A DNA stretch of 64,000 bases, from positions 2,208,001 through 2,272,000 of the forward strand of contig CBDBGH010000003.1 of NCBI GenBank assembly GCA_965205265.1, written 5' to 3'. This document shows positions 9,975 through 61,878 of this stretch, piece after piece. Made by a program: the position numbers and the translations under genes. A model generated the notes under the pieces. That model saw nothing but the letters and a program-made list of their open reading frames with translations. It was not told the origin of the DNA and searched no databases. The stretch comes from Alphaproteobacteria bacterium. Its GTDB lineage: Bacteria > Pseudomonadota > Alphaproteobacteria > Bin95. The first letter of the stretch is position 1. Each line of letters opens with the position of its first letter.

Positions 9975-10259
9975 ATGACGCCGGAGATGATTGCGATACT
10001 GGCCGTTGGGGCCAGTCTGGTCGGTATAGGCGTCACCCTGGGCGGCTTGGTCTGGCAGGGTCACCGTGCATTACGCGCCGATCTGGGCGGTCGGATGGAC
10101 CGGATCGAAGGCGTAATGAAGGAACAAGGCGGTCGGATGGACCGGATCGAAGGCGTAATGAAGGAACAAGGCGAGCGTATCGCGCGGATCGAAGGGATGC
10201 TGCATCTGCATCTCGGCCGGAACGCGGACATCGCCCCGCCGGCGGCGCCGGCCGAATAG
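9975..10259 (+). CDS. Small hypothetical protein: N-terminal TM helix plus heptad-repeat coiled coil
   Basis: MTPEMIAILAVGASLVGIGVTLGGLVW followed by (GGRMDRIEGVMKEQ)x2. Confidence 0.7.
   Translation: MTPEMIAILAVGASLVGIGVTLGGLVWQGHRALRADLGGRMDRIEGVMKEQGGRMDRIEGVMKEQGERIARIEGMLHLHLGRNADIAPPAAPAE
10086..10172 (+). repeat. Exact 42-bp in-frame tandem repeat (2 copies)
   Basis: ggcggtcggatggaccggatcgaaggcgtaatgaaggaacaa at 10086 and 10128. Confidence 0.95.
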
Positions 10260-11262: not shown

Positions 11263-13674
11263 ATGGCCCCCCTCCCCTCCCACGCCTCCATCGTCATCGT
11301 CGGCGGCGGCATTGTCGGGCTGAGCCTCGCCTACCACCTGGCGAAGGCCGGGCGCGACGGCATATTGCTGCTGGAACGCAAGCAGTTCACCTGCGGCACC
11401 ACCTGGCACGCGGCGGGCCTTGTGCGCTCCGCCGCGCCGCATCCGACGCTGGCCGCCATCCTCGCCGATTCGTCGCGGCTCTACGCCGAACTGGAGGCCG
11501 AGACCGGCCAGACCACCGGCTACCGGCGGACGGGCTCGATCTACACCGCCGGCAATGCAGAGCGCTGGGAGGAGCTCAAGCGCTCGGCAGCAAGCGCGCG
11601 GGCCTATGGCGCCGAGATCGAATTCTGCACGCCGGCGGACCTGAAGCGCCTCTGGCCGCTCCTGCATGTCGATGACCTGATCGGCGGCAGCTTCTATGCC
11701 GGCGACGGCCAGACCAACCCGGCGGACACCGCCGCTGCGCTCGCCAGGGGCGCGCGGCAGGCCGGCGCCGTGCTGCTGGAGAATGTGAAGGTCACGGGCA
11801 TCCGTGCGGCAGGCGGGCGCATCACCGGCGTCGAGACCGAGGCCGGGCCGGTCGCGACGGAGTGCGTCGCCAACTGCGCCGGCATGTGGGCGCGCGAGGT
11901 CGGCCTGATGGCCGGAACGCCCGTGCCGCTCCACGCGGCGGAGCATTTCTACATCGTCACCGAGCCGATGGAGGGCGTCGAGGCCGGCCTTCCGGTCATG
12001 CGCGACCAGGACAGTTCCGCCTACTACAAGGAAGACGCCGGCAAGCTGCTCGTCGGCGCGTTCGAGCCGGTGGCGAAGCCCTGGGGCATGGACGGCATCC
12101 CGGAGGATTTCTGCTTCGACCAGCTACCCGACGACTGGGACCATTTCGAGCCGATACTGGAAGGCGCGCTGCACCGCGTGCCGGCACTGAGGGAGACGGG
12201 CATACGCCTCTTCTTCAACGGCCCGGAGAGCTTCACCCCGGACCAGGCGTTCCATCTGGGCCCCGCCGGCAATGTCGAGGGCTTCTGGATCGCGGCCGGT
12301 TTCAATTCCATCGGCATCCAGGCGGCGGGCGGCGTCGGCCAGCGGCTCGCGGCCTGGATCGAGGACGGCGCGCCGCCCTGCGACCTCTCGGCCTTCGACC
12401 CGCGCCGGATGCAGCCCTTCCAGAACGGCAGGACCTACCTCAAGGCGCGCGTCAGCGAGGCGCTGGGCCTCCTCTACGCCATGCACTGGCCCTACCGGCA
12501 ATTCGAGACGGCGCGCGGCGAGCGGCGGTCCCCGGTGCATGGCGCGCTGGCGGAAGCGGGCGCCTGCTTCGGCGAGGTCGCCGGCTGGGAGCGCGCCAAC
12601 TGGTTCGCGCGGCCGGGCGAAGAGCCCGTCTATGAATACAGCTACGGACGGCAGAACTGGTTCGGGGCGAGCGCCGCCGAGCACCGGAGCGTCCGCGAGG
12701 AAGCCGGCGTGTTCGACCTCACCTCCTTCGGCAAGATCCTGGTCGAGGGGCCGGACGCCGAGGCGCTGCTGCAATGGGTCTCGGCCAACGACATGAGCCG
12801 CCCGCCCGGAAGCGTGGTCTACACCCAATGGCTGAATGCGGCGGCCGGCATAGAGGCGGACCTGACCGTCACCCGGCTCGACGAGGCCCGCTACATGGTG
12901 GTGACGGCCGCGGCCGCCGCAGCGCGGGACCTGGCCCGGCTCCGCATGGAGGCTCGCGACCGGCGCGTGGACCTGGCGGACATAACGGACGAGCTGGCCG
13001 TGTTCGCCGTCATGGGGCCGAAGTCGCGCGCCCTGCTCGCGCCGCTGACATCGGCCGACCTTTCGGACAATGCCTTCCCGTTCGGAACCTCGCGGGAGAT
13101 CGAGCTGGCGGGCGCGCCGCTCAGGGCGTCGCGCATCAGCTATGTCGGCGAGCTCGGCTGGGAGCTGTATGTGCCCTGGAGCGAGGCGAGAGGGGTGTTC
13201 GCGGCGCTGCGGGACGCAGGCGCTGCGCCCGTCGGGATGCACGCGCTGGACAGCCTGCGCATCGAGAAGGCCTACCGCCACTGGGGCCACGACATCGCGC
13301 CTTCGGACAACCCGGTCGAGGCCGGCCTCGCCTTCGCCGTGAAGCCCGACGCCAAGGACTTCCTCGGCCGCGAGGCCTATCTCCGCGCGCGCGACGCCGG
13401 CCCTTCGCGCCGCCTGATGCAGTTCCGCCTGCTCGACCCCGAACCGCTGCTCTACGGCCATGAGCCGATCCTGGCGGACGGGCGCATGGTCGATACGCTG
13501 ACCTCCGCCAATTACGGGCACGCGCTGGGCGGGGCCGTAGGCCTCGGCTATGTGCCGGTGCAGGCGCTCGATGCCGGCGCATTCGCGATAAATGTGGCGG
13601 GCGTGGCCGTTCCGGCCGAGGCTTCGCTCAGGCCGCTCTACGACCCGGGGAACCGCAGGATGCGGGGTGTCTGA
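11263..13674 (+). CDS. GcvT-family FAD-dependent oxidoreductase (sarcosine/dimethylglycine dehydrogenase-like)
   Basis: GGGIVG, GTTWHAAG, NGPESFTPD, GWERANWF, SYVGELGWEL, LRIEKAY. Confidence 0.9.
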   Translation: MAPLPSHASIVIVGGGIVGLSLAYHLAKAGRDGILLLERKQFTCGTTWHAAGLVRSAAPHPTLAAILADSSRLYAELEAETGQTTGYRRTGSIYTAGNAERWEELKRSAASARAYGAEIEFCTPADLKRLWPLLHVDDLIGGSFYAGDGQTNPADTAAALARGARQAGAVLLENVKVTGIRAAGGRITGVETEAGPVATECVANCAGMWAREVGLMAGTPVPLHAAEHFYIVTEPMEGVEAGLPVMRDQDSSAYYKEDAGKLLVGAFEPVAKPWGMDGIPEDFCFDQLPDDWDHFEPILEGALHRVPALRETGIRLFFNGPESFTPDQAFHLGPAGNVEGFWIAAGFNSIGIQAAGGVGQRLAAWIEDGAPPCDLSAFDPRRMQPFQNGRTYLKARVSEALGLLYAMHWPYRQFETARGERRSPVHGALAEAGACFGEVAGWERANWFARPGEEPVYEYSYGRQNWFGASAAEHRSVREEAGVFDLTSFGKILVEGPDAEALLQWVSANDMSRPPGSVVYTQWLNAAAGIEADLTVTRLDEARYMVVTAAAAAARDLARLRMEARDRRVDLADITDELAVFAVMGPKSRALLAPLTSADLSDNAFPFGTSREIELAGAPLRASRISYVGELGWELYVPWSEARGVFAALRDAGAAPVGMHALDSLRIEKAYRHWGHDIAPSDNPVEAGLAFAVKPDAKDFLGREAYLRARDAGPSRRLMQFRLLDPEPLLYGHEPILADGRMVDTLTSANYGHALGGAVGLGYVPVQALDAGAFAINVAGVAVPAEASLRPLYDPGNRRMRGV

Positions 13675-13834
13675 CGGATCCGGCTTCCGGCAATCGTCGA
13701 AATCACGAGCTCCGGAACCGCGGAAAGCCCCAGTCCCCACAGTTTCCGGATCAGCTTCCCGATATGCCATTCGCGCATAAATGTTATCCGATTATGCACT
13801 TACCTTTCCGATTCCATGCTTCTAGAGACTATTT
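13674..13834. repeat. 161-bp target duplication, left copy (IS1634 copy 1)
   Basis: Identical to 18547-18707. Confidence 0.95.
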
Positions 13835-15514
13835 CCTGACTTCGACGGTTGATTCGCATAAGTAGTTGATATTGCCTGGTTCTCATTTCGGCTAGGCACT
13901 ACATCCGGCATTTCTTCGAGCCGTGCTTCGTCGACGGTCAGGCGAGTTGATACGGGGTGATCGTCAGGGGCAGCCCCATGGTTGCGTAAATCTGCTCCGC
14001 CGCCGGTGTCGGCTTCGAGGGGATGACGTAGCGGTTGCCCGATTGCCGACAGCGCAGCAGGGAGCACTGGCGGTGGACGAGGGCGGAGCGGATGACCTCC
14101 GGGGACATCCGCCGCTTCTGGATGGCGACGCGGTACGCAAGGTGTCGAACGCAGGCGAAGGCCAGGAAGGCGATGGCGATGTGAGCGCGGATCCGGTCCG
14201 GGTTCCAGTGCCAGATGGGACGTATCTTCAGGTCGTGTTTGGTGATCCGGAAGCTCTCCTCGACCTGCCAGAGCCCCTGGTAGTGAGCCATCACTTCGGT
14301 GACGCGCGCGTCGCGCAGATTGGTGATGACGCCGGTGAGCCCGTCCCATCGTGCGGCCTCGGCGATCTTCTCCGGGTTCACCGTGAGCCGTGCGTCGCCC
14401 TCGACGGCGATGAAGCGCTTCGCCCCGTGATTGGAGAGCAGTTCCCTGGGATTGTCGCTGCGGGCCAGCCTGTCGAGCAGGCGTTCCACCTGATGGCGGC
14501 GCTCGTGCGCGTCCTTGCGTGCGCGCTGGGGGCAGAAGACGACGATCAGGCGACGGCCCTTGTACTCCCACTCGCCGACCCGGCGGTCCTGTGAGCCCTC
14601 CAGCGGGGCATAGGTCCCGGGGTCGAGAACCTGCCCCAGCAGCGCGAGCGGCAGCTTGCGCAGCCGCGCGCCGACGACATACTCGCCGCCGATGGCGTCC
14701 ATGGCGTCGAGGTTGTCGGCGCTCAGCATGCCCCGGTCGGCCACGCATACCGTGCGCTCCACCTGGTGGCGGCGCTGCATGTCCTGCAGGACCGGGACCA
14801 TGCTGTGTCCCTCGTAGGTGGCGCCGGGGAAGACCTCGTAGCTGATCGGCAGCCCTTCGCGCGTCACCATCAGCGCCAGCAGAACCTGCGAGTCCTTGTG
14901 TTTGCCGTCCTTGCTGAAGCCGTGCTGGCGAAGCTCGTCCTCGGCGGCCGTCTCGAAGTAGAGCGTGGTGCAATCGAAGAAGAGGATCGCGACCGGCTCC
15001 GGCAGCAGCGACCGGCTCGCCTCGCCGACGCGCGTGCGCAGTCGCTCGATCACCGTCGCGTCGAGCTGATCCATCATCCGGTAGACCTTCTCGAGCGGAA
15101 GACTCACGCCGAAGTCCTCCTCGAGCCGGCGCACGCTGCCCCGCTTGCTGTCGGGGTTGGCTACCCGCGCCATCACCACATGGAACAGCGCGTCATGGGA
15201 GGCCCGGTAGCGCGAGCGCGGCAGCAGCGCGTCGAGGCCCAGCAGCCGGTAGATATAGCGCGACAATCTGGGTGAGAGCCGCGCGTCAATCAGGATGAGA
15301 TTCCCCGGCGGCATCGGCGAGTTGATGATTGTCGCGCGGGGCGCGGATTGCAAGCGGTTTCGGATTTTGATTGTCGCGGCGCGACAAACAGGGTTTTCGG
15401 AGAGCGTTTTGATTGTCGCGGGGGGGCCGTCGGGTCGGAGAAGAGACGGCCCGCGGAGGCGATTCCCGCGGGCTGTGAGTGTTGTGGCCGCTGGGCCGAT
15501 CTGGCGGCAGCGGT

Positions 15515-17862
<2,348 letters not shown>

Positions 17863-17930
17863 CTACTCGGAAAAACGTCACCGTTCGCCCAGCCGACCGA
17901 CCCCGCCAGAAGGTCCAGGAAAAATTTTTG

Positions 17931-17989
17931 AGGCGGCGGCCCGGAACTCCGGTCGGGCTACGCCCTCCCTCCGTTCCGGGCCGCCGCCT
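17931..17989. repeat. 17-bp-stem hairpin in the istA leader
   Basis: aggcggcggcccggaac ... gttccgggccgccgcct. Confidence 0.8.
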
Positions 17990-18546
17990 TCCCCCGTCTC
18001 ATCCTGATTGTCGCCAGCGTCTCAAGCTGATTGTCGCGCCGCAGGTAGATCTCGCCATAGACCTCGTGGATGCCTGTGATCAGGCGCTGCTCCTCTTCAA
18101 GCTGCTTGAGGTCGACCGGGAGTTCCTCCTTGCCGTCCCCCCGGCGGCCGACACGGATCGCCTGCTCAGCGATCTTCTCGGGCGCAAACAATGCCGGCTG
18201 ACGCTCGTCCTCCAGCTTCGCCTTGACGTACTCGCCGAGCTGCCTCAGGCGCTCGAGCTCGTCCTCGTCCATGGCCACGCCGACATGGCGGACGATGCGC
18301 TGTCGGACCTTGCCGCCGTCGCGCACGGCCTCGACGATCTGGACCGAGCGTCGCGGGCTGTTGGGGGAGGTCTTGATGCGCACGAACATGGGGGGAGTGT
18401 AGCGCGTGGCGGAGGCATTGACAGTCTCAAAGATTTACTAGGCACTACAACGCAGCTTGACCGCACCGCAACTGCCAACTCATTGGCTTTACTGAAAACT
18501 CCAGACGCGAGATCGGTCAGAAGTCAGCCCAACCGTCGAAGTCAGG

Positions 18547-18707
18547 ACGGATCCGGCTTCCGGCAATCGTCGAAATCACGAGCTCCGGAACCGCGGAAAG
18601 CCCCAGTCCCCACAGTTTCCGGATCAGCTTCCCGATATGCCATTCGCGCATAAATGTTATCCGATTATGCACTTACCTTTCCGATTCCATGCTTCTAGAG
18701 ACTATTT
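18547..18707. repeat. 161-bp target duplication, right copy (IS1634 copy 1)
   Basis: Identical to 13674-13834. Confidence 0.95.
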
Positions 18708-31644: not shown

Positions 31645-31765
31645 GGCGGGCTGAGCTATCGTCCGAGGACGATGTCGAGGCCGGCAAGCAGTAAATCGAT
31701 CTTCGCCGGCGGGATCCGGCCTGTGCGTTCTTCGAGAAGCGTCCGGTCGAGAGCGACGACCTGCG

Positions 31766-31811
31766 ATACGTTCGCGACAGAATCCTTCGGCAAACCCGTC
31801 ATTCCCGCGGT
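31766..31811. repeat. 46-bp target duplication of IS1634 copy 2 (second copy at 33728-33773)
   Basis: atacgttcgcgacagaatccttcggcaaacccgtcattcccgcggt on both sides. Confidence 0.95.
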
Positions 31812-31968
31812 CCTGACTTCGACGGTTGGGCTGACTTCTGACCGATCTCGCGTCTGGAGTTTTCAGTAAAGCCAATGAGTTGGCAGTTGCGGTGCGGTCA
31901 AGCTGCGTTGTAGTGCCTAGTAAATCTTTGAGACTGTCAATGCCTCCGCCACGCGCTACACTCCCCCC

Positions 31969-33624
31969 ATGTTCGTGCGCATCAAGACCTCCCCCAACAG
32001 CCCGCGACGCTCGGTCCAGATCGTCGAGGCCGTGCGCGACGGCGGCAAGGTCCGACAGCGCATCGTCCGCCATGTCGGCGTGGCCATGGACGAGGACGAG
32101 CTCGAGCGCCTGAGGCAGCTCGGCGAGTACGTCAAGGCGAAGCTGGAGGACGAGCGTCAGCCGGCATTGTTTGCGCCCGAGAAGATCGCTGAGCAGGCGA
32201 TCCGTGTCGGCCGCCGGGGGGACGGCAAGGAGGAACTCCCGGTCGACCTCAAGCAGCTTGAAGAGGAGCAGCGCCTGATCACAGGCATCCACGAGGTCTA
32301 TGGCGAGATCTACCGGCTGCTGGGCCTCGACGCGCTGCTGCCGCGCTCGCGCTACCGGGCCTCCCATGACGCGCTGTTCCATGTGGTGATGGCGCGGGTA
32401 GCCAACCCCGACAGCAAGCGGGGCAGCGTGCGCCGGCTCGAGGAGGACTTCGGCGTGAGTCTTCCGCTCGAGAAGGTCTACCGGATGATGGATCAGCTCG
32501 ACGCGACGGTGATCGAGCGACTGCGCACGCGCGTCGGCGAGGCGAGCCGGTCGCTGCTGCCGGAGCCGGTCGCGATCCTCTTCTTCGATTGCACCACGCT
32601 CTACTTCGAGACGGCCGCCGAGGACGAGCTTCGCCAGCACGGCTTCAGCAAGGACGGCAAACACAAGGACTCGCAGGTTCTGCTGGCGCTGATGGTGACG
32701 CGCGAAGGGCTGCCGATCAGCTACGAGGTCTTCCCCGGCGCCACCTACGAGGGACACAGCATGGTCCCGGTCCTGCAGGACATGCAGCGCCGCCACCAGG
32801 TGGAGCGCACGGTATGCGTGGCCGACCGGGGCATGCTGAGCGCCGACAACCTCGACGCCATGGACGCCATCGGCGGCGAGTATGTCGTCGGCGCGCGGCT
32901 GCGCAAGCTGCCGCTCGCGCTGCTGGGGCAGGTTCTCGACCCCGGGACCTATGCCCCGCTGGAGGGCTCACAGGACCGCCGGGTCGGCGAGTGGGAGTAC
33001 AAGGGCCGTCGCCTGATCGTCGTCTTCTGCCCCCAGCGCGCACGCAAGGACGCGCACGAGCGCCGCCATCAGGTGGAACGCCTGCTCGACAGGCTGGCCC
33101 GCAGCGACAATCCCAGGGAACTGCTCTCCAATCACGGGGCGAAGCGCTTCATCGCCGTCGAGGGCGACGCACGGCTCACGGTGAACCCGGAGAAGATCGC
33201 CGAGGCCGCACGATGGGACGGGCTCACCGGCGTCATCACCAATCTGCGCGACGCGCGCGTCACCGAAGTGATGGCTCACTACCAGGGGCTCTGGCAGGTC
33301 GAGGAGAGCTTCCGGATCACCAAACACGACCTGAAGATACGTCCCATCTGGCACTGGAACCCGGACCGGATCCGCGCTCACATCGCCATCGCCTTCCTGG
33401 CCTTCGCCTGCGTTCGACACCTTGCGTACCGCGTCGCCATCCAGAAGCGGCGGATGTCCCCGGAGGTCATCCGCTCCGCCCTCGTCCACCGCCAGTGCTC
33501 CCTGCTGCGCTGTCGGCAATCGGGCAACCGCTACGTCATCCCCTCGAAGCCGACACCGGCGGCGGAGCAGATTTACGCAACCATGGGGCTGCCCCTGACG
33601 ATCACCCCGTATCAACTCGCCTGA
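31969..33624 (+). CDS. IS1634-family DDE transposase, 551 aa
   Basis: FFDCTTLYFE, GFSKDGK, VADRGM, WQVEESFRITK, IRPIWHW..RIRAHI. Confidence 0.93.
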   Translation: MFVRIKTSPNSPRRSVQIVEAVRDGGKVRQRIVRHVGVAMDEDELERLRQLGEYVKAKLEDERQPALFAPEKIAEQAIRVGRRGDGKEELPVDLKQLEEEQRLITGIHEVYGEIYRLLGLDALLPRSRYRASHDALFHVVMARVANPDSKRGSVRRLEEDFGVSLPLEKVYRMMDQLDATVIERLRTRVGEASRSLLPEPVAILFFDCTTLYFETAAEDELRQHGFSKDGKHKDSQVLLALMVTREGLPISYEVFPGATYEGHSMVPVLQDMQRRHQVERTVCVADRGMLSADNLDAMDAIGGEYVVGARLRKLPLALLGQVLDPGTYAPLEGSQDRRVGEWEYKGRRLIVVFCPQRARKDAHERRHQVERLLDRLARSDNPRELLSNHGAKRFIAVEGDARLTVNPEKIAEAARWDGLTGVITNLRDARVTEVMAHYQGLWQVEESFRITKHDLKIRPIWHWNPDRIRAHIAIAFLAFACVRHLAYRVAIQKRRMSPEVIRSALVHRQCSLLRCRQSGNRYVIPSKPTPAAEQIYATMGLPLTITPYQLA

Positions 33625-33690
33625 CCGTCGACGAAGCACGGCTCGAAGAAATGCCGGATGTAGTGCCTAGCCGAAATGAGAACCAGGCAA

Positions 33691-33703
33691 TATCAACTAC
33701 TTA
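33691..33703 (+). promoter_or_regulatory. IHF consensus site in the IS1634 downstream end (present in all four copies)
   Basis: TATCAACTACTTA fully matches WATCAANNNNTTR. Confidence 0.6.
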
Positions 33704-33742
33704 TGCGAATCAACCGTCGAAGTCAGGATACGTTCGCGACAG

Positions 33743-33793
33743 AATCCTTCGGCAAACCCGTCATTCCCGCGGTCAACAGCACGTTCCCCGGCG
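33743..33793. repeat. 51-bp target duplication of IS1634 copy 3 (second copy at 35710-35760)
   Basis: aatccttcggc...ttccccggcg on both sides. Confidence 0.95.
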
Positions 33794-35709
33794 CCTGACT
33801 TCGACGGTTGGGCTGACTTCTGACCGATCTCGCGTCTGGAGTTTTCAGTAAAGCCAATGAGTTGGCAGTTGCGGTGCGGTCAAGCTGCGTTGTAGTGCCT
33901 AGTAAATCTTTGAGACTGTCAATGCCTCCGCCACGCGCTACACTCCCCCCATGTTCGTGCGCATCAAGACCTCCCCCAACAGCCCGCGACGCTCGGTCCA
34001 GATCGTCGAGGCCGTGCGCGACGGCGGCAAGGTCCGACAGCGCATCGTCCGCCATGTCGGCGTGGCCATGGACGAGGACGAGCTCGAGCGCCTGAGGCAG
34101 CTCGGCGAGTACGTCAAGGCGAAGCTGGAGGACGAGCGTCAGCCGGCATTGTTTGCGCCCGAGAAGATCGCTGAGCAGGCGATCCGTGTCGGCCGCCGGG
34201 GGGACGGCAAGGAGGAACTCCCGGTCGACCTCAAGCAGCTTGAAGAGGAGCAGCGCCTGATCACAGGCATCCACGAGGTCTATGGCGAGATCTACCGGCT
34301 GCTGGGCCTCGACGCGCTGCTGCCGCGCTCGCGCTACCGGGCCTCCCATGACGCGCTGTTCCATGTGGTGATGGCGCGGGTAGCCAACCCCGACAGCAAG
34401 CGGGGCAGCGTGCGCCGGCTCGAGGAGGACTTCGGCGTGAGTCTTCCGCTCGAGAAGGTCTACCGGATGATGGATCAGCTCGACGCGACGGTGATCGAGC
34501 GACTGCGCACGCGCGTCGGCGAGGCGAGCCGGTCGCTGCTGCCGGAGCCGGTCGCGATCCTCTTCTTCGATTGCACCACGCTCTACTTCGAGACGGCCGC
34601 CGAGGACGAGCTTCGCCAGCACGGCTTCAGCAAGGACGGCAAACACAAGGACTCGCAGGTTCTGCTGGCGCTGATGGTGACGCGCGAAGGGCTGCCGATC
34701 AGCTACGAGGTCTTCCCCGGCGCCACCTACGAGGGACACAGCATGGTCCCGGTCCTGCAGGACATGCAGCGCCGCCACCAGGTGGAGCGCACGGTATGCG
34801 TGGCCGACCGGGGCATGCTGAGCGCCGACAACCTCGACGCCATGGACGCCATCGGCGGCGAGTATGTCGTCGGCGCGCGGCTGCGCAAGCTGCCGCTCGC
34901 GCTGCTGGGGCAGGTTCTCGACCCCGGGACCTATGCCCCGCTGGAGGGCTCACAGGACCGCCGGGTCGGCGAGTGGGAGTACAAGGGCCGTCGCCTGATC
35001 GTCGTCTTCTGCCCCCAGCGCGCACGCAAGGACGCGCACGAGCGCCGCCATCAGGTGGAACGCCTGCTCGACAGGCTGGCCCGCAGCGACAATCCCAGGG
35101 AACTGCTCTCCAATCACGGGGCGAAGCGCTTCATCGCCGTCGAGGGCGACGCACGGCTCACGGTGAACCCGGAGAAGATCGCCGAGGCCGCACGATGGGA
35201 CGGGCTCACCGGCGTCATCACCAATCTGCGCGACGCGCGCGTCACCGAAGTGATGGCTCACTACCAGGGGCTCTGGCAGGTCGAGGAGAGCTTCCGGATC
35301 ACCAAACACGACCTGAAGATACGTCCCATCTGGCACTGGAACCCGGACCGGATCCGCGCTCACATCGCCATCGCCTTCCTGGCCTTCGCCTGCGTTCGAC
35401 ACCTTGCGTACCGCGTCGCCATCCAGAAGCGGCGGATGTCCCCGGAGGTCATCCGCTCCGCCCTCGTCCACCGCCAGTGCTCCCTGCTGCGCTGTCGGCA
35501 ATCGGGCAACCGCTACGTCATCCCCTCGAAGCCGACACCGGCGGCGGAGCAGATTTACGCAACCATGGGGCTGCCCCTGACGATCACCCCGTATCAACTC
35601 GCCTGACCGTCGACGAAGCACGGCTCGAAGAAATGCCGGATGTAGTGCCTAGCCGAAATGAGAACCAGGCAATATCAACTACTTATGCGAATCAACCGTC
35701 GAAGTCAGG
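33794..35709 (+). mobile_element. IS1634-family element copy 3 (1916 bp)
   Basis: Same IRs and ORF as copy 2; 51-bp DR. Confidence 0.95.
33951..35606 (+). CDS. IS1634-family transposase, 551 aa
   Basis: Translation identical to copy 2. Confidence 0.93.
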   Translation: MFVRIKTSPNSPRRSVQIVEAVRDGGKVRQRIVRHVGVAMDEDELERLRQLGEYVKAKLEDERQPALFAPEKIAEQAIRVGRRGDGKEELPVDLKQLEEEQRLITGIHEVYGEIYRLLGLDALLPRSRYRASHDALFHVVMARVANPDSKRGSVRRLEEDFGVSLPLEKVYRMMDQLDATVIERLRTRVGEASRSLLPEPVAILFFDCTTLYFETAAEDELRQHGFSKDGKHKDSQVLLALMVTREGLPISYEVFPGATYEGHSMVPVLQDMQRRHQVERTVCVADRGMLSADNLDAMDAIGGEYVVGARLRKLPLALLGQVLDPGTYAPLEGSQDRRVGEWEYKGRRLIVVFCPQRARKDAHERRHQVERLLDRLARSDNPRELLSNHGAKRFIAVEGDARLTVNPEKIAEAARWDGLTGVITNLRDARVTEVMAHYQGLWQVEESFRITKHDLKIRPIWHWNPDRIRAHIAIAFLAFACVRHLAYRVAIQKRRMSPEVIRSALVHRQCSLLRCRQSGNRYVIPSKPTPAAEQIYATMGLPLTITPYQLA

Positions 35710-35922
35710 AATCCTTCGGCAAACCCGTCATTCCCGCGGTCAACAGCACGTTCCCCGGCGCGTCGGCCCACCGCAGATTGCTTGTGAGCGGCACGCAGAC
35801 TGCCGTGGCCAGCCGGCTTCGATTCAGGGCATCCCCCTGGACGATGACGACCGGCCGCCGGAATCCCGGTCCCGAACCTGCGGGCTCAGGCAATTCGGCC
35901 CAGCACACGTCACCCTGGGAGA

Positions 35923-36159
35923 TCACCATTCGACGCGATCGAACACCTGCCGGCCCGCCGCGTTGAGGAAGGCGTCATCGGCCTCGCCAACCTCGTCGCA
36001 TACGCGGTTCATCGTGTCGGTGATCTCCTCACGCGCATGGCGCGCAAGATATTCGTCGAGCGCCGCCGCATACACTTCGCTTCGCGATTTCCGCTCTTGC
36101 AAAACCAGGCGTTCGGCGCGTTCGAAAATGTCGTCGGGAATCGATACTGCTGTTTTCAT
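35923..36159 (-). CDS. RHH/CopG-type antitoxin of the MazF/PemK toxin (intact)
   Basis: MKTAVSIPDDIF..SRSEVY; overlaps the toxin start; ATAC-N5-GTAT palindrome at 36158-36170. Confidence 0.85.
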   Translation of the reverse strand: MKTAVSIPDDIFERAERLVLQERKSRSEVYAAALDEYLARHAREEITDTMNRVCDEVGEADDAFLNAAGRQVFDRVEW

Positions 36160-59723: not shown

Positions 59724-59830
59724 AGTTACATTCCCATCCGAGCCCGAAATCGCCGCCCCGGCCCGCGAGCCGGGTCCATCCACAACTGTTTCGGTCCGGT
59801 GGAAAGGCCGGGAGATGGACCCCGGATCGT
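59724..59830. repeat. 107-bp target duplication of IS1634 copy 4 (second copy at 61747-61853)
   Basis: agttacattccc...ccccggatcgt on both sides. Confidence 0.95.
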
Positions 59831-61746
59831 CCTGACTTCGACGGTTGATTCGCATAAGTAGTTGATATTGCCTGGTTCTCATTTCGGCTAGGCACTACAT
59901 CCGGCATTTCTTCGAGCCGTGCTTCGTCGACGGTCAGGCGAGTTGATACGGGGTGATCGTCAGGGGCAGCCCCATGGTTGCGTAAATCTGCTCCGCCGCC
60001 GGTGTCGGCTTCGAGGGGATGACGTAGCGGTTGCCCGATTGCCGACAGCGCAGCAGGGAGCACTGGCGGTGGACGAGGGCGGAGCGGATGACCTCCGGGG
60101 ACATCCGCCGCTTCTGGATGGCGACGCGGTACGCAAGGTGTCGAACGCAGGCGAAGGCCAGGAAGGCGATGGCGATGTGAGCGCGGATCCGGTCCGGGTT
60201 CCAGTGCCAGATGGGACGTATCTTCAGGTCGTGTTTGGTGATCCGGAAGCTCTCCTCGACCTGCCAGAGCCCCTGGTAGTGAGCCATCACTTCGGTGACG
60301 CGCGCGTCGCGCAGATTGGTGATGACGCCGGTGAGCCCGTCCCATCGTGCGGCCTCGGCGATCTTCTCCGGGTTCACCGTGAGCCGTGCGTCGCCCTCGA
60401 CGGCGATGAAGCGCTTCGCCCCGTGATTGGAGAGCAGTTCCCTGGGATTGTCGCTGCGGGCCAGCCTGTCGAGCAGGCGTTCCACCTGATGGCGGCGCTC
60501 GTGCGCGTCCTTGCGTGCGCGCTGGGGGCAGAAGACGACGATCAGGCGACGGCCCTTGTACTCCCACTCGCCGACCCGGCGGTCCTGTGAGCCCTCCAGC
60601 GGGGCATAGGTCCCGGGGTCGAGAACCTGCCCCAGCAGCGCGAGCGGCAGCTTGCGCAGCCGCGCGCCGACGACATACTCGCCGCCGATGGCGTCCATGG
60701 CGTCGAGGTTGTCGGCGCTCAGCATGCCCCGGTCGGCCACGCATACCGTGCGCTCCACCTGGTGGCGGCGCTGCATGTCCTGCAGGACCGGGACCATGCT
60801 GTGTCCCTCGTAGGTGGCGCCGGGGAAGACCTCGTAGCTGATCGGCAGCCCTTCGCGCGTCACCATCAGCGCCAGCAGAACCTGCGAGTCCTTGTGTTTG
60901 CCGTCCTTGCTGAAGCCGTGCTGGCGAAGCTCGTCCTCGGCGGCCGTCTCGAAGTAGAGCGTGGTGCAATCGAAGAAGAGGATCGCGACCGGCTCCGGCA
61001 GCAGCGACCGGCTCGCCTCGCCGACGCGCGTGCGCAGTCGCTCGATCACCGTCGCGTCGAGCTGATCCATCATCCGGTAGACCTTCTCGAGCGGAAGACT
61101 CACGCCGAAGTCCTCCTCGAGCCGGCGCACGCTGCCCCGCTTGCTGTCGGGGTTGGCTACCCGCGCCATCACCACATGGAACAGCGCGTCATGGGAGGCC
61201 CGGTAGCGCGAGCGCGGCAGCAGCGCGTCGAGGCCCAGCAGCCGGTAGATCTCGCCATAGACCTCGTGGATGCCTGTGATCAGGCGCTGCTCCTCTTCAA
61301 GCTGCTTGAGGTCGACCGGGAGTTCCTCCTTGCCGTCCCCCCGGCGGCCGACACGGATCGCCTGCTCAGCGATCTTCTCGGGCGCAAACAATGCCGGCTG
61401 ACGCTCGTCCTCCAGCTTCGCCTTGACGTACTCGCCGAGCTGCCTCAGGCGCTCGAGCTCGTCCTCGTCCATGGCCACGCCGACATGGCGGACGATGCGC
61501 TGTCGGACCTTGCCGCCGTCGCGCACGGCCTCGACGATCTGGACCGAGCGTCGCGGGCTGTTGGGGGAGGTCTTGATGCGCACGAACATGGGGGGAGTGT
61601 AGCGCGTGGCGGAGGCATTGACAGTCTCAAAGATTTACTAGGCACTACAACGCAGCTTGACCGCACCGCAACTGCCAACTCATTGGCTTTACTGAAAACT
61701 CCAGACGCGAGATCGGTCAGAAGTCAGCCCAACCGTCGAAGTCAGG
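59831..61746 (-). mobile_element. IS1634-family element copy 4 (1916 bp)
   Basis: Same IRs and ORF as the other copies; 107-bp DR. Confidence 0.95.
59934..61589 (-). CDS. IS1634-family transposase, 551 aa
   Basis: Translation identical to copies 2 and 3. Confidence 0.93.
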   Translation of the reverse strand: MFVRIKTSPNSPRRSVQIVEAVRDGGKVRQRIVRHVGVAMDEDELERLRQLGEYVKAKLEDERQPALFAPEKIAEQAIRVGRRGDGKEELPVDLKQLEEEQRLITGIHEVYGEIYRLLGLDALLPRSRYRASHDALFHVVMARVANPDSKRGSVRRLEEDFGVSLPLEKVYRMMDQLDATVIERLRTRVGEASRSLLPEPVAILFFDCTTLYFETAAEDELRQHGFSKDGKHKDSQVLLALMVTREGLPISYEVFPGATYEGHSMVPVLQDMQRRHQVERTVCVADRGMLSADNLDAMDAIGGEYVVGARLRKLPLALLGQVLDPGTYAPLEGSQDRRVGEWEYKGRRLIVVFCPQRARKDAHERRHQVERLLDRLARSDNPRELLSNHGAKRFIAVEGDARLTVNPEKIAEAARWDGLTGVITNLRDARVTEVMAHYQGLWQVEESFRITKHDLKIRPIWHWNPDRIRAHIAIAFLAFACVRHLAYRVAIQKRRMSPEVIRSALVHRQCSLLRCRQSGNRYVIPSKPTPAAEQIYATMGLPLTITPYQLA

Positions 61747-61773
61747 AGTTACATTCCCATCCGAGCCCGAAAT

Positions 61774-61878
61774 CGCCGCCCCGGCCCGCGAGCCGGGTCC
61801 ATCCACAACTGTTTCGGTCCGGTGGAAAGGCCGGGAGATGGACCCCGGATCGTCACTGGCGTGCCGTCCGGGGTGACG
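61774..61878. repeat. REP-like bipartite palindrome downstream of prfB
   Basis: cccggc..gccggg and accccgga..tccggggt hairpins; related to 5809-5921. Confidence 0.65.

Follow-up and report, generated by a model that had tools for sequence, protein, structure and literature searches.

The DNA stretch considered in this work, hereafter the window, comprises 64,000 nucleotides from an Alphaproteobacteria bacterium (assembly GCA_965205265.1, contig CBDBGH010000003.1; G000:C3:2208001-2272000, where a genome position is the window coordinate plus 2208000), and it contains 4 copies of a 1916-bp insertion sequence (IS) that is assigned here to the IS1634 family. The insertions of this element are flanked by direct repeats whose length varies between copies, and at both joints, on opposite strands, a symmetric target preference is observed which can be written a-W-S|A-R (the bar denotes the joint; W, S, and R stand for A/T, G/C, and A/G, respectively); it is a preference and not a law. 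The explanation that best accounts for the results overall, to which we assign a probability of approximately 0.75, is that of an active element with CC...GG ends that selects its two half-sites independently, leaves the spacing between them free, and carries out two strand transfers that are uncoupled from each other. More than 100 clean and mostly perfect insertion events, derived from this genome and from relatives of the element, place constraints upon any model of its transposition, viz. a joint site of the above form, ends that are alike and independent, and a spacing that is free, exponential-like, and unphased. Elements with as little as 50% transposase identity, in several bacterial classes, behave alike, and with a defined element the question of how it arises becomes testable.

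The element, its family and its ends

A BLAST search of the whole genome with the element yielded 69 segments, nearly all of them 100% identical, from which 124 ends (63 left, 61 right) were obtained. The four copies located in the window (designated A to D) and the duplications that flank them are as follows:

13674..13834, unstranded: duplication on one side of copy A, 161 bp (flank comparison)
13835..18546, minus strand: copy A of the IS1634-family element, interrupted at about 15255-18037 by an element of the IS21 family
18547..18707, unstranded: duplication on the other side of copy A, 161 bp (flank comparison)
31766..31811, unstranded: left target duplication of copy B, 46 bp (ATACG...GCGGT), present once in the relative G014
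31812..33727, plus strand: IS1634-family element copy B, 1916 bp, with the ends CCTGACTTCGACGGTTG ... CAACCGTCGAAGTCAGG (junction and repeat analysis)
31969..33624, plus strand: gene for the 551-aa transposase of copy B, with NF033559 and PF01609 matches
33728..33773, unstranded: right target duplication of copy B, 46 bp (flank comparison)
33743..33793, unstranded: left duplication of copy C, 51 bp (AATCC...CGGCG), which shares 31 bp with the right repeat of copy B
33794..35709, plus strand: IS1634-family element copy C (BLAST and repeat analysis)
35710..35760, unstranded: right duplication of copy C, 51 bp (flank comparison)
59724..59830, unstranded: duplication on one side of copy D, 107 bp, present once in the relative G014
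59831..61746, minus strand: IS1634-family element copy D (BLAST and repeat analysis)
61747..61853, unstranded: duplication on the other side of copy D, 107 bp (flank comparison)

Judged by its sequence, the region of copy B is occupied by an IS1634-family insertion sequence, which represents a new and very well populated member of that family. Its transposase matches the NCBIfam model NF033559 (IS1634 family) with 341.3 bits (cutoff 100) along profile positions 1-482 of 483, and the Pfam model PF01609 (DDE_Tnp_1) with 54 bits (cutoff 23), which places it among the proteins with an IS4-type DDE domain. The terminal inverted repeat of copy B is perfect over 17 bp, and the ends of the element (CCTGACTT), with C at position 1 and T/T at positions 7-8, fit the consensus C-----YT which is tabulated for this family, together with a length of 1500-2000 bp and one transposase gene, in the 2008 family review (PMC2266710); the length of 1916 bp and the single 551-aa open reading frame (ORF) are likewise within this description. 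According to the same review, the YREK motif is altered in this family, where its arginine is as a rule missing.

Long direct repeats that differ in length between copies characterize a subgroup of the family, and they were found here at 57 insertions. For the founding members IS1634 (Mycoplasma mycoides) and IS1549 (Mycobacterium smegmatis), whose transposases are of the same family, such long variable duplications have been known since 1998-99; the same review (PMC2266710) gives a range of 8-514 bp for their direct repeats and notes that, as of 2008, there was "no mechanistic model" for them. The present element resembles them in its long variable repeats but differs from them in host and sequence; its repeats extend up to 573 bp, and to 1318 bp in its relatives, and 114 + 90 half-sites provide the logo that is described below. 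The family members ISPfe2 (Paracoccus; PMC3281130), ISGka5 (Geobacillus; PMC8024623), and Acidiphilium IS1634-1 (PMC4549789) are of similar length (1884 bp in the case of ISPfe2), carry one DDE transposase gene each, and make 6-bp duplications, and the norm indicated for the family in the review is of 5-6 bp AT-rich tracts (PMC2266710). In contrast, only 2/57 of the insertions examined here have repeats of 5-6 bp, and 5/57 have repeats under 15 bp. The ISH3 family, which consists of archaeal relatives of IS4 and IS1634, is a separate family with a fixed 5-bp duplication, unlike the free spacing observed here. IS10 and IS50/Tn5, which belong to the IS4 family, are also mobilized by DDE transposases, and they have a symmetric degenerate target consensus on opposite strands. 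Their stagger, however, is fixed at 9 bp (9 bp for IS10 and 8-9 bp for IS50 as tabulated in PMC2266710), in contrast to the free spacing of this element. No half-site rule was found in the literature on IS1634/IS1549 and on family targets, as represented by the available portions of PMC8024623, PMC2266710, PMC3281130, PMC4549789, PMC3053259, PMC9392320, and PMC11004492, a set that includes neither the two founding papers nor any supplements.

In a preliminary description of the window, based upon its sequence, it was proposed that the true ends of the element may be CTGAC...GTCAG, with a G/C from the target forming part of every duplication, such that each of these would read G(A)...(T)C. The observations behind this proposal are accurate. 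The eight flanks that it listed (GACGG, GAAAT, GACCG, GATAC, GCGCC, GAATC, GAGTT, and GACGA; genome positions 2221836-2269745) are exact, as are its repeat lengths of 163, 48, 53, and 109 bp, which are perfect with these ends, and the outermost base does match the target at 8/8 junctions of the four copies (a 5' G and a 3' C in each case). However, in the whole genome the base lying outward of CTGAC/GTCAG is a G at 124/124 junctions, and as this G is often not duplicated, it must be regarded as element sequence and not as target; the "8/8 G" counted from these ends thus does not constitute an observation on the target. A target G/C beside the repeat is present at both ends in 25/57 insertions, at one end only in 24/57, and at neither in 8/57. 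With the ends CTGAC...GTCAG, a perfect repeat of at least 35 bp was obtained for only 23/61 paired copies, plus one 3-bp match, whereas with CCTGAC...GTCAGG an all-against-all comparison of flanks recovered 57 insertions with perfect repeats (a count made after dropping four redundant pairings, viz. two inter-element spacers, one B/C cross-pairing, and one duplicated left end). The true ends are therefore CCTGAC...GTCAGG, and the invariant outward G is the element's own terminal base. Although all 8 window junctions and both ends of 25/57 insertions are compatible with the proposal taken literally, it retains hardly any credibility in view of these results and of the CC...GG ends kept by diverged relatives.

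Other data bearing upon the ends are in agreement. Related elements of 85-89% DNA identity in other genomes have identical CC...GG termini; among 45 copies from four other assemblies the similarity between copies ends at CCTGAC/GTCAGG, with a variable next base; and in public sequencing runs that cover copy B, branching flanks (loose ends) depart at 31808-31812 and 33729-33730. Because the target often has a G just before the joint, the four repeats of the window appeared longer by one base per end. The 8/8 match results from a target preference that is real, though only partial, together with some luck (0.649^8 = 0.03): for a target G at 8/8 junctions, p = 1.9e-4 when compared with its genomic frequency of 0.343, but p = 0.03 when compared with the element's own rate of 74/114. 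The CC...GG termini are now fixed, and the case provides a warning for annotation, as a chance match between the last base of an element and its target can shift the inferred ends and repeat lengths.

Target duplications and half-sites

The 57 repeats are all perfect, and they range in length from 5 to 573 bp (median 143, mean 179). In the same-genus relative G014, the site of copies B and C and the site of copy D are both empty, and the left flank, the repeat, and the right flank are collinear with each repeat present once; the repeats are therefore true target duplications. The duplications of copies B and C (46 and 51 bp) overlap by 31 bp, and they lie within a gene for a 114-aa PemK/MazF-like toxin that is intact in G014. 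Three complete copies in the genome are without repeats, and two further ends are rearranged and unpaired. Among the public runs, four of which were assembled as contigs over copy B, no empty-site joint is listed; the short contigs that cover one or the other copy B junction extend less than 31 letters on each side and were not counted as bridging. In the public run X19 the word depth is 1743 for the element contig and 21.9 for the flank, a ratio that is not a copy number.

An origin of the long repeats by unequal recombination between nearby copies on sister chromosomes, rather than by insertion, can be given next to no weight. Homologous exchange between copies does occur (C3:4892940-4894855 / C3:5202993-5204908), but the production of long repeats in this manner would require a pair of closely spaced insertions in every one of the 57 cases, and the repeats are perfect. 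Moreover, the outer ends of the repeats both carry the half-site in outward orientation, the same behaviour is seen in five other assemblies, and PMC2266710 cites reports of long repeats upon de novo insertion of IS1549 and IS1634.

To determine the composition of the joints, the uninterrupted targets were rebuilt and both joints were read outward, giving 114 half-sites from the 57 insertions (genomic background: A 0.159, G 0.343). The first duplicated base (position +1) is A in 87/114 half-sites (76%), and it is preceded at -1 by G in 74 and C in 32 (S 93%) and followed at +2 by G in 46 and A in 33 (R 69%). At position -2, A and T occur in 53 and 31 half-sites, respectively (W 74%), and at -3 A is present in 44/114 (39%). 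Positions +4 to +7 are mildly T-rich, and positions -11 to -7 and +10 to +12 have the background composition. The dinucleotide GA spans the joint in 58/114 half-sites, and when all 124 junctions are considered an A is found at +1 in 96 of them (p = 9e-52). When a 5-bp matrix was applied in a leave-one-out manner, the median chosen site was in the top 3% of same-strand positions within 400 bp, and 56% of the sites were in the top 5%.

Within an insertion, the half-site used on the left is independent of that used on the right (Fisher test: GA, p = 0.29; A, p = 0.49). The earlier suggestion that each end independently picks a half-site on opposite strands is thus borne out, as a preference, by these values and by the symmetric logo, and it was also correct that the GA pattern of the window is unlikely by chance, since A is the second outward base at 7/8 junctions (p = 1.8e-5 against an A frequency of 0.159). 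The GA enrichment noted in the preliminary description does not disappear in the larger set of 124 junctions, nor in other assemblies. What fails is the universal form of the rule, in which every duplication would read G(A)...(T)C, as the frequencies of G and A are 65% and 76%, respectively.

A bias in base composition could also arise from the region or from selection among survivors (i.e., from AT-rich, permissive DNA) and not from the transposase. In line with this, the duplicated segments have a lower guanine plus cytosine (GC) content than their flanks (62.7% vs. 65.6%, p = 0.002; genome 68.2%), and there is the mild T-richness noted above. However, the bias is sharp and limited to positions -3 to +2; the G/C at -1 (106/114) lies within a context that favours A/T, which is impossible to obtain from composition; and the logo recurs in assemblies whose flanks have 48% and 66% GC. 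We consider this explanation to be very improbable.

The preliminary description further held that the repeat length is simply the distance between two chosen half-sites, and that this explains its variability. Each repeat, however, contains unused dinucleotides within it (a median of 11 GA and 9 TC), and therefore the motif does not set the spacing. The 57 lengths are compatible with an exponential distribution (Kolmogorov-Smirnov p = 0.48), and for the 102 lengths obtained when those of the relatives described below are pooled in, the Akaike information criterion (AIC) is 1298.3 for the exponential, 1298.4 for a gamma (shape 1.2), and 1299.6 for a lognormal distribution; this pooled set includes 37 repeats shorter than 100 bp, of which 15 are shorter than 50 bp. 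A scan of the 57 lengths for helical phasing (periods of 5-40 bp, low power) gave none, the best period being 14.0 bp with a maximum-of-scan p = 0.41; for a period of 10.5 bp, R = 0.11.

Several side observations concern these insertion sites. One toxin gene has been struck by two independent insertions (B and C) within 66 bp, and its remnants are found on the minus strand at 31650-31811, 33728-33793, and 35710-35929 of the window, with only the first 74 codons still contiguous at 35705-35929. The corresponding region of G014 (L110 1947-2521) has the intact toxin gene, with a 78-aa antitoxin-like ORF upstream of it. Elsewhere in the genome, one copy of the element is nested within another (G000:C3:4596309-4600231), where it has a 91-bp duplication of element sequence and both joints read G|A. 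The repeat halves of two inverted copies about 310 kb apart (C3:4892940-4894855 and 5202993-5204908) have been swapped reciprocally, a pattern which indicates an inversion by recombination between these copies. A further left end has its partner in the right end of a copy located about 2 Mb from it (C3:2317705 and 4292087).

Related elements and the coupling of the strand transfers

A transposase scan of species-representative genomes led to 79 loci (L024-L102), from which 60 usable copies were obtained; these are from assemblies labelled Alphaproteobacteria, Candidatus Poriferihabitaceae, Pseudohongiella, and Paracoccaceae. L047 (the same site as L045), L002 and L003 (the same places as L034 and L053), and loci without a recognisable end pair were dropped from this count. 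The transposases of the relatives have 93%, 90%, or about 57% identity to that of the element, and the terminal repeat is kept. Direct repeats of 16-1318 bp (median 142) flank 45/60 of the copies, and 15/60 are without them. The composition of the joints is similar to that described above, with A at +1 in 87/120 junctions (expected 25.6), G at -1 in 45/90 half-sites (expected 26.1), and W at -2 in 65/90 half-sites (expected 37.7). A more distant element of 50% identity is present in a Pseudomonadales assembly; it has the ends CCCGAC...GTCGGG, repeats of 59-478 bp at 4/7 copies, and A at +1 in 13/14 junctions. Insertions within a genome are separate events, but the elements are kin, and pooled p-values overstate their independence. 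For the single copies in the relatives G005 (89% DNA identity) and G001 (85%), no repeat was found within 1500 bp.

A terminal repeat of 15-17 bp, CCTGACTTCGACGGT, is kept among L024-L102 in elements that share no more than about 57% transposase identity; the assemblies that carry them are labelled as different classes, and several of the elements are present in many copies. The conservation of this repeat across classes suggests that the element may have spread horizontally and expanded in a shared habitat.

With regard to mechanism, standard DDE chemistry would predict that both ends attack through their 3'-OH on the 5' side of the preferred A, on opposite strands and with a 5' stagger; at the joint, the terminal G of the element becomes connected to this A. 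Strand-displacing repair synthesis would then copy the interval between the two joints, which would give rise to the direct repeat. The enzyme leaves the distance from joint to joint unfixed. The half-site would decide the placement of each joint locally and not their separation, and the two strand transfers would be uncoupled in space or time. The second end might fire once it has tracked away from the first joint along the target, or once the target has been unwound from there, or else upon capture of a segment in the vicinity. Because 37/102 of the spacings are under 100 bp, and because the spacings as a whole show no phasing and an exponential spread, we lean, at slightly less than even odds, toward a sequential or tracked transfer rather than a simultaneous capture of a loop.

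The latter possibility, in which one synaptic complex would hold two target segments and transfer both ends jointly, so that repeat length equals loop size, appears to us rather unlikely though worthy of consideration, the remaining weight falling upon other mechanisms. Half-sites that are identical in logo and statistically independent speak in its favour, as do the skipping of many usable intervening sites and repeats of up to 1318 bp. However, the looping of unaided DNA is costly at lengths under 100 bp, and repeats of such length are common in the pooled set, including the 15/102 under 50 bp; helical phasing was not found (in a test of low power), and a free loop would leave the near-constant outcome of a duplication unexplained.

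A more specific version of sequential transfer, which we put forward tentatively and with considerable doubt for this clade of IS1634-family elements, combines the shared 5-bp half-site and the uncoupled transfers with a second end that fires at constant hazard during tracking, unwinding, or replication from the first nick. In this view, the exponential-like spacing, whose median is the same (about 143 bp) in two data sets that are independent, would result from such a sequential mechanism. Transposases of this family have been reported to bind the beta sliding clamp (PMC4549789), which makes a replication-linked second step plausible. If this proposal is true, it would constitute a mode of target capture that is undescribed for DDE transposases and the first mechanistic handle on a question that has been open since 1998.

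A number of points weigh against the explanation of independent half-sites and uncoupled transfers preferred in this work. The preference is weak in one relative (93% identity, 9 copies), where A and C are each found at +1 in 8/18 junctions. All insertions that can be seen are survivors, and selection could have shaped part of the logo; the reduced GC content of the duplicated segments also counts here. The copies without repeats, both the three in this genome and the 15/60 in the relatives, could in some cases have arisen from a different type of event. With 57 lengths, the power to recognise helical phasing is low. Lastly, the polarity is always that of a duplication, which is not in itself accounted for if two sites are chosen freely and independently.

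Surroundings of the copies

Of the same-copy insertions, 13/54 are located in one of eleven 0.5-Mb bins (C3 2.0-2.5 Mb), which is the bin of the window itself; this may be due to local hopping or to a permissive region. The cumulative GC skew gives no clean origin or terminus (minimum 4.34 Mb, maximum 5.45 Mb), and the orientation relative to replication (25/54 of the elements co-directional) is uninformative. The public runs that contain the flank of the window are mostly labelled as sponge, coral-reef, or marine metagenomes, with small word shares.

The IS21-family element that splits copy A (window about 15255-18037) is approximately 2.79 kb in length, and its IstA and IstB proteins match NF033546 (200 bits) and NF038214 (282 bits), respectively. 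There are 34 full-length copies of it in this genome, in three sequence variants. Five IS21-family copies are located inside IS1634-like copies, and one more adjoins a truncated IS1634-like copy; as the IS1634-like copies make up about 2% of the genome, the binomial probability of such landings is p = 6e-4 for 5 and 6e-5 for 6. Two of the IS21 insertions are at an almost identical position of the IS1634-like element, about 1333-1341.

Directly to the left of copy D, the segment 59230-59540 of the window is a member of a dispersed repeat family, with 36 matches in this genome and 35-43 matches, at 71-85% identity, in most genomes of the same genus; a Pfam search with its two overlapping ORFs gave no match. 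A tandem 42-bp unit is present at 10086-10211 of the window, where two copies of the unit are identical and the third is 62% alike.

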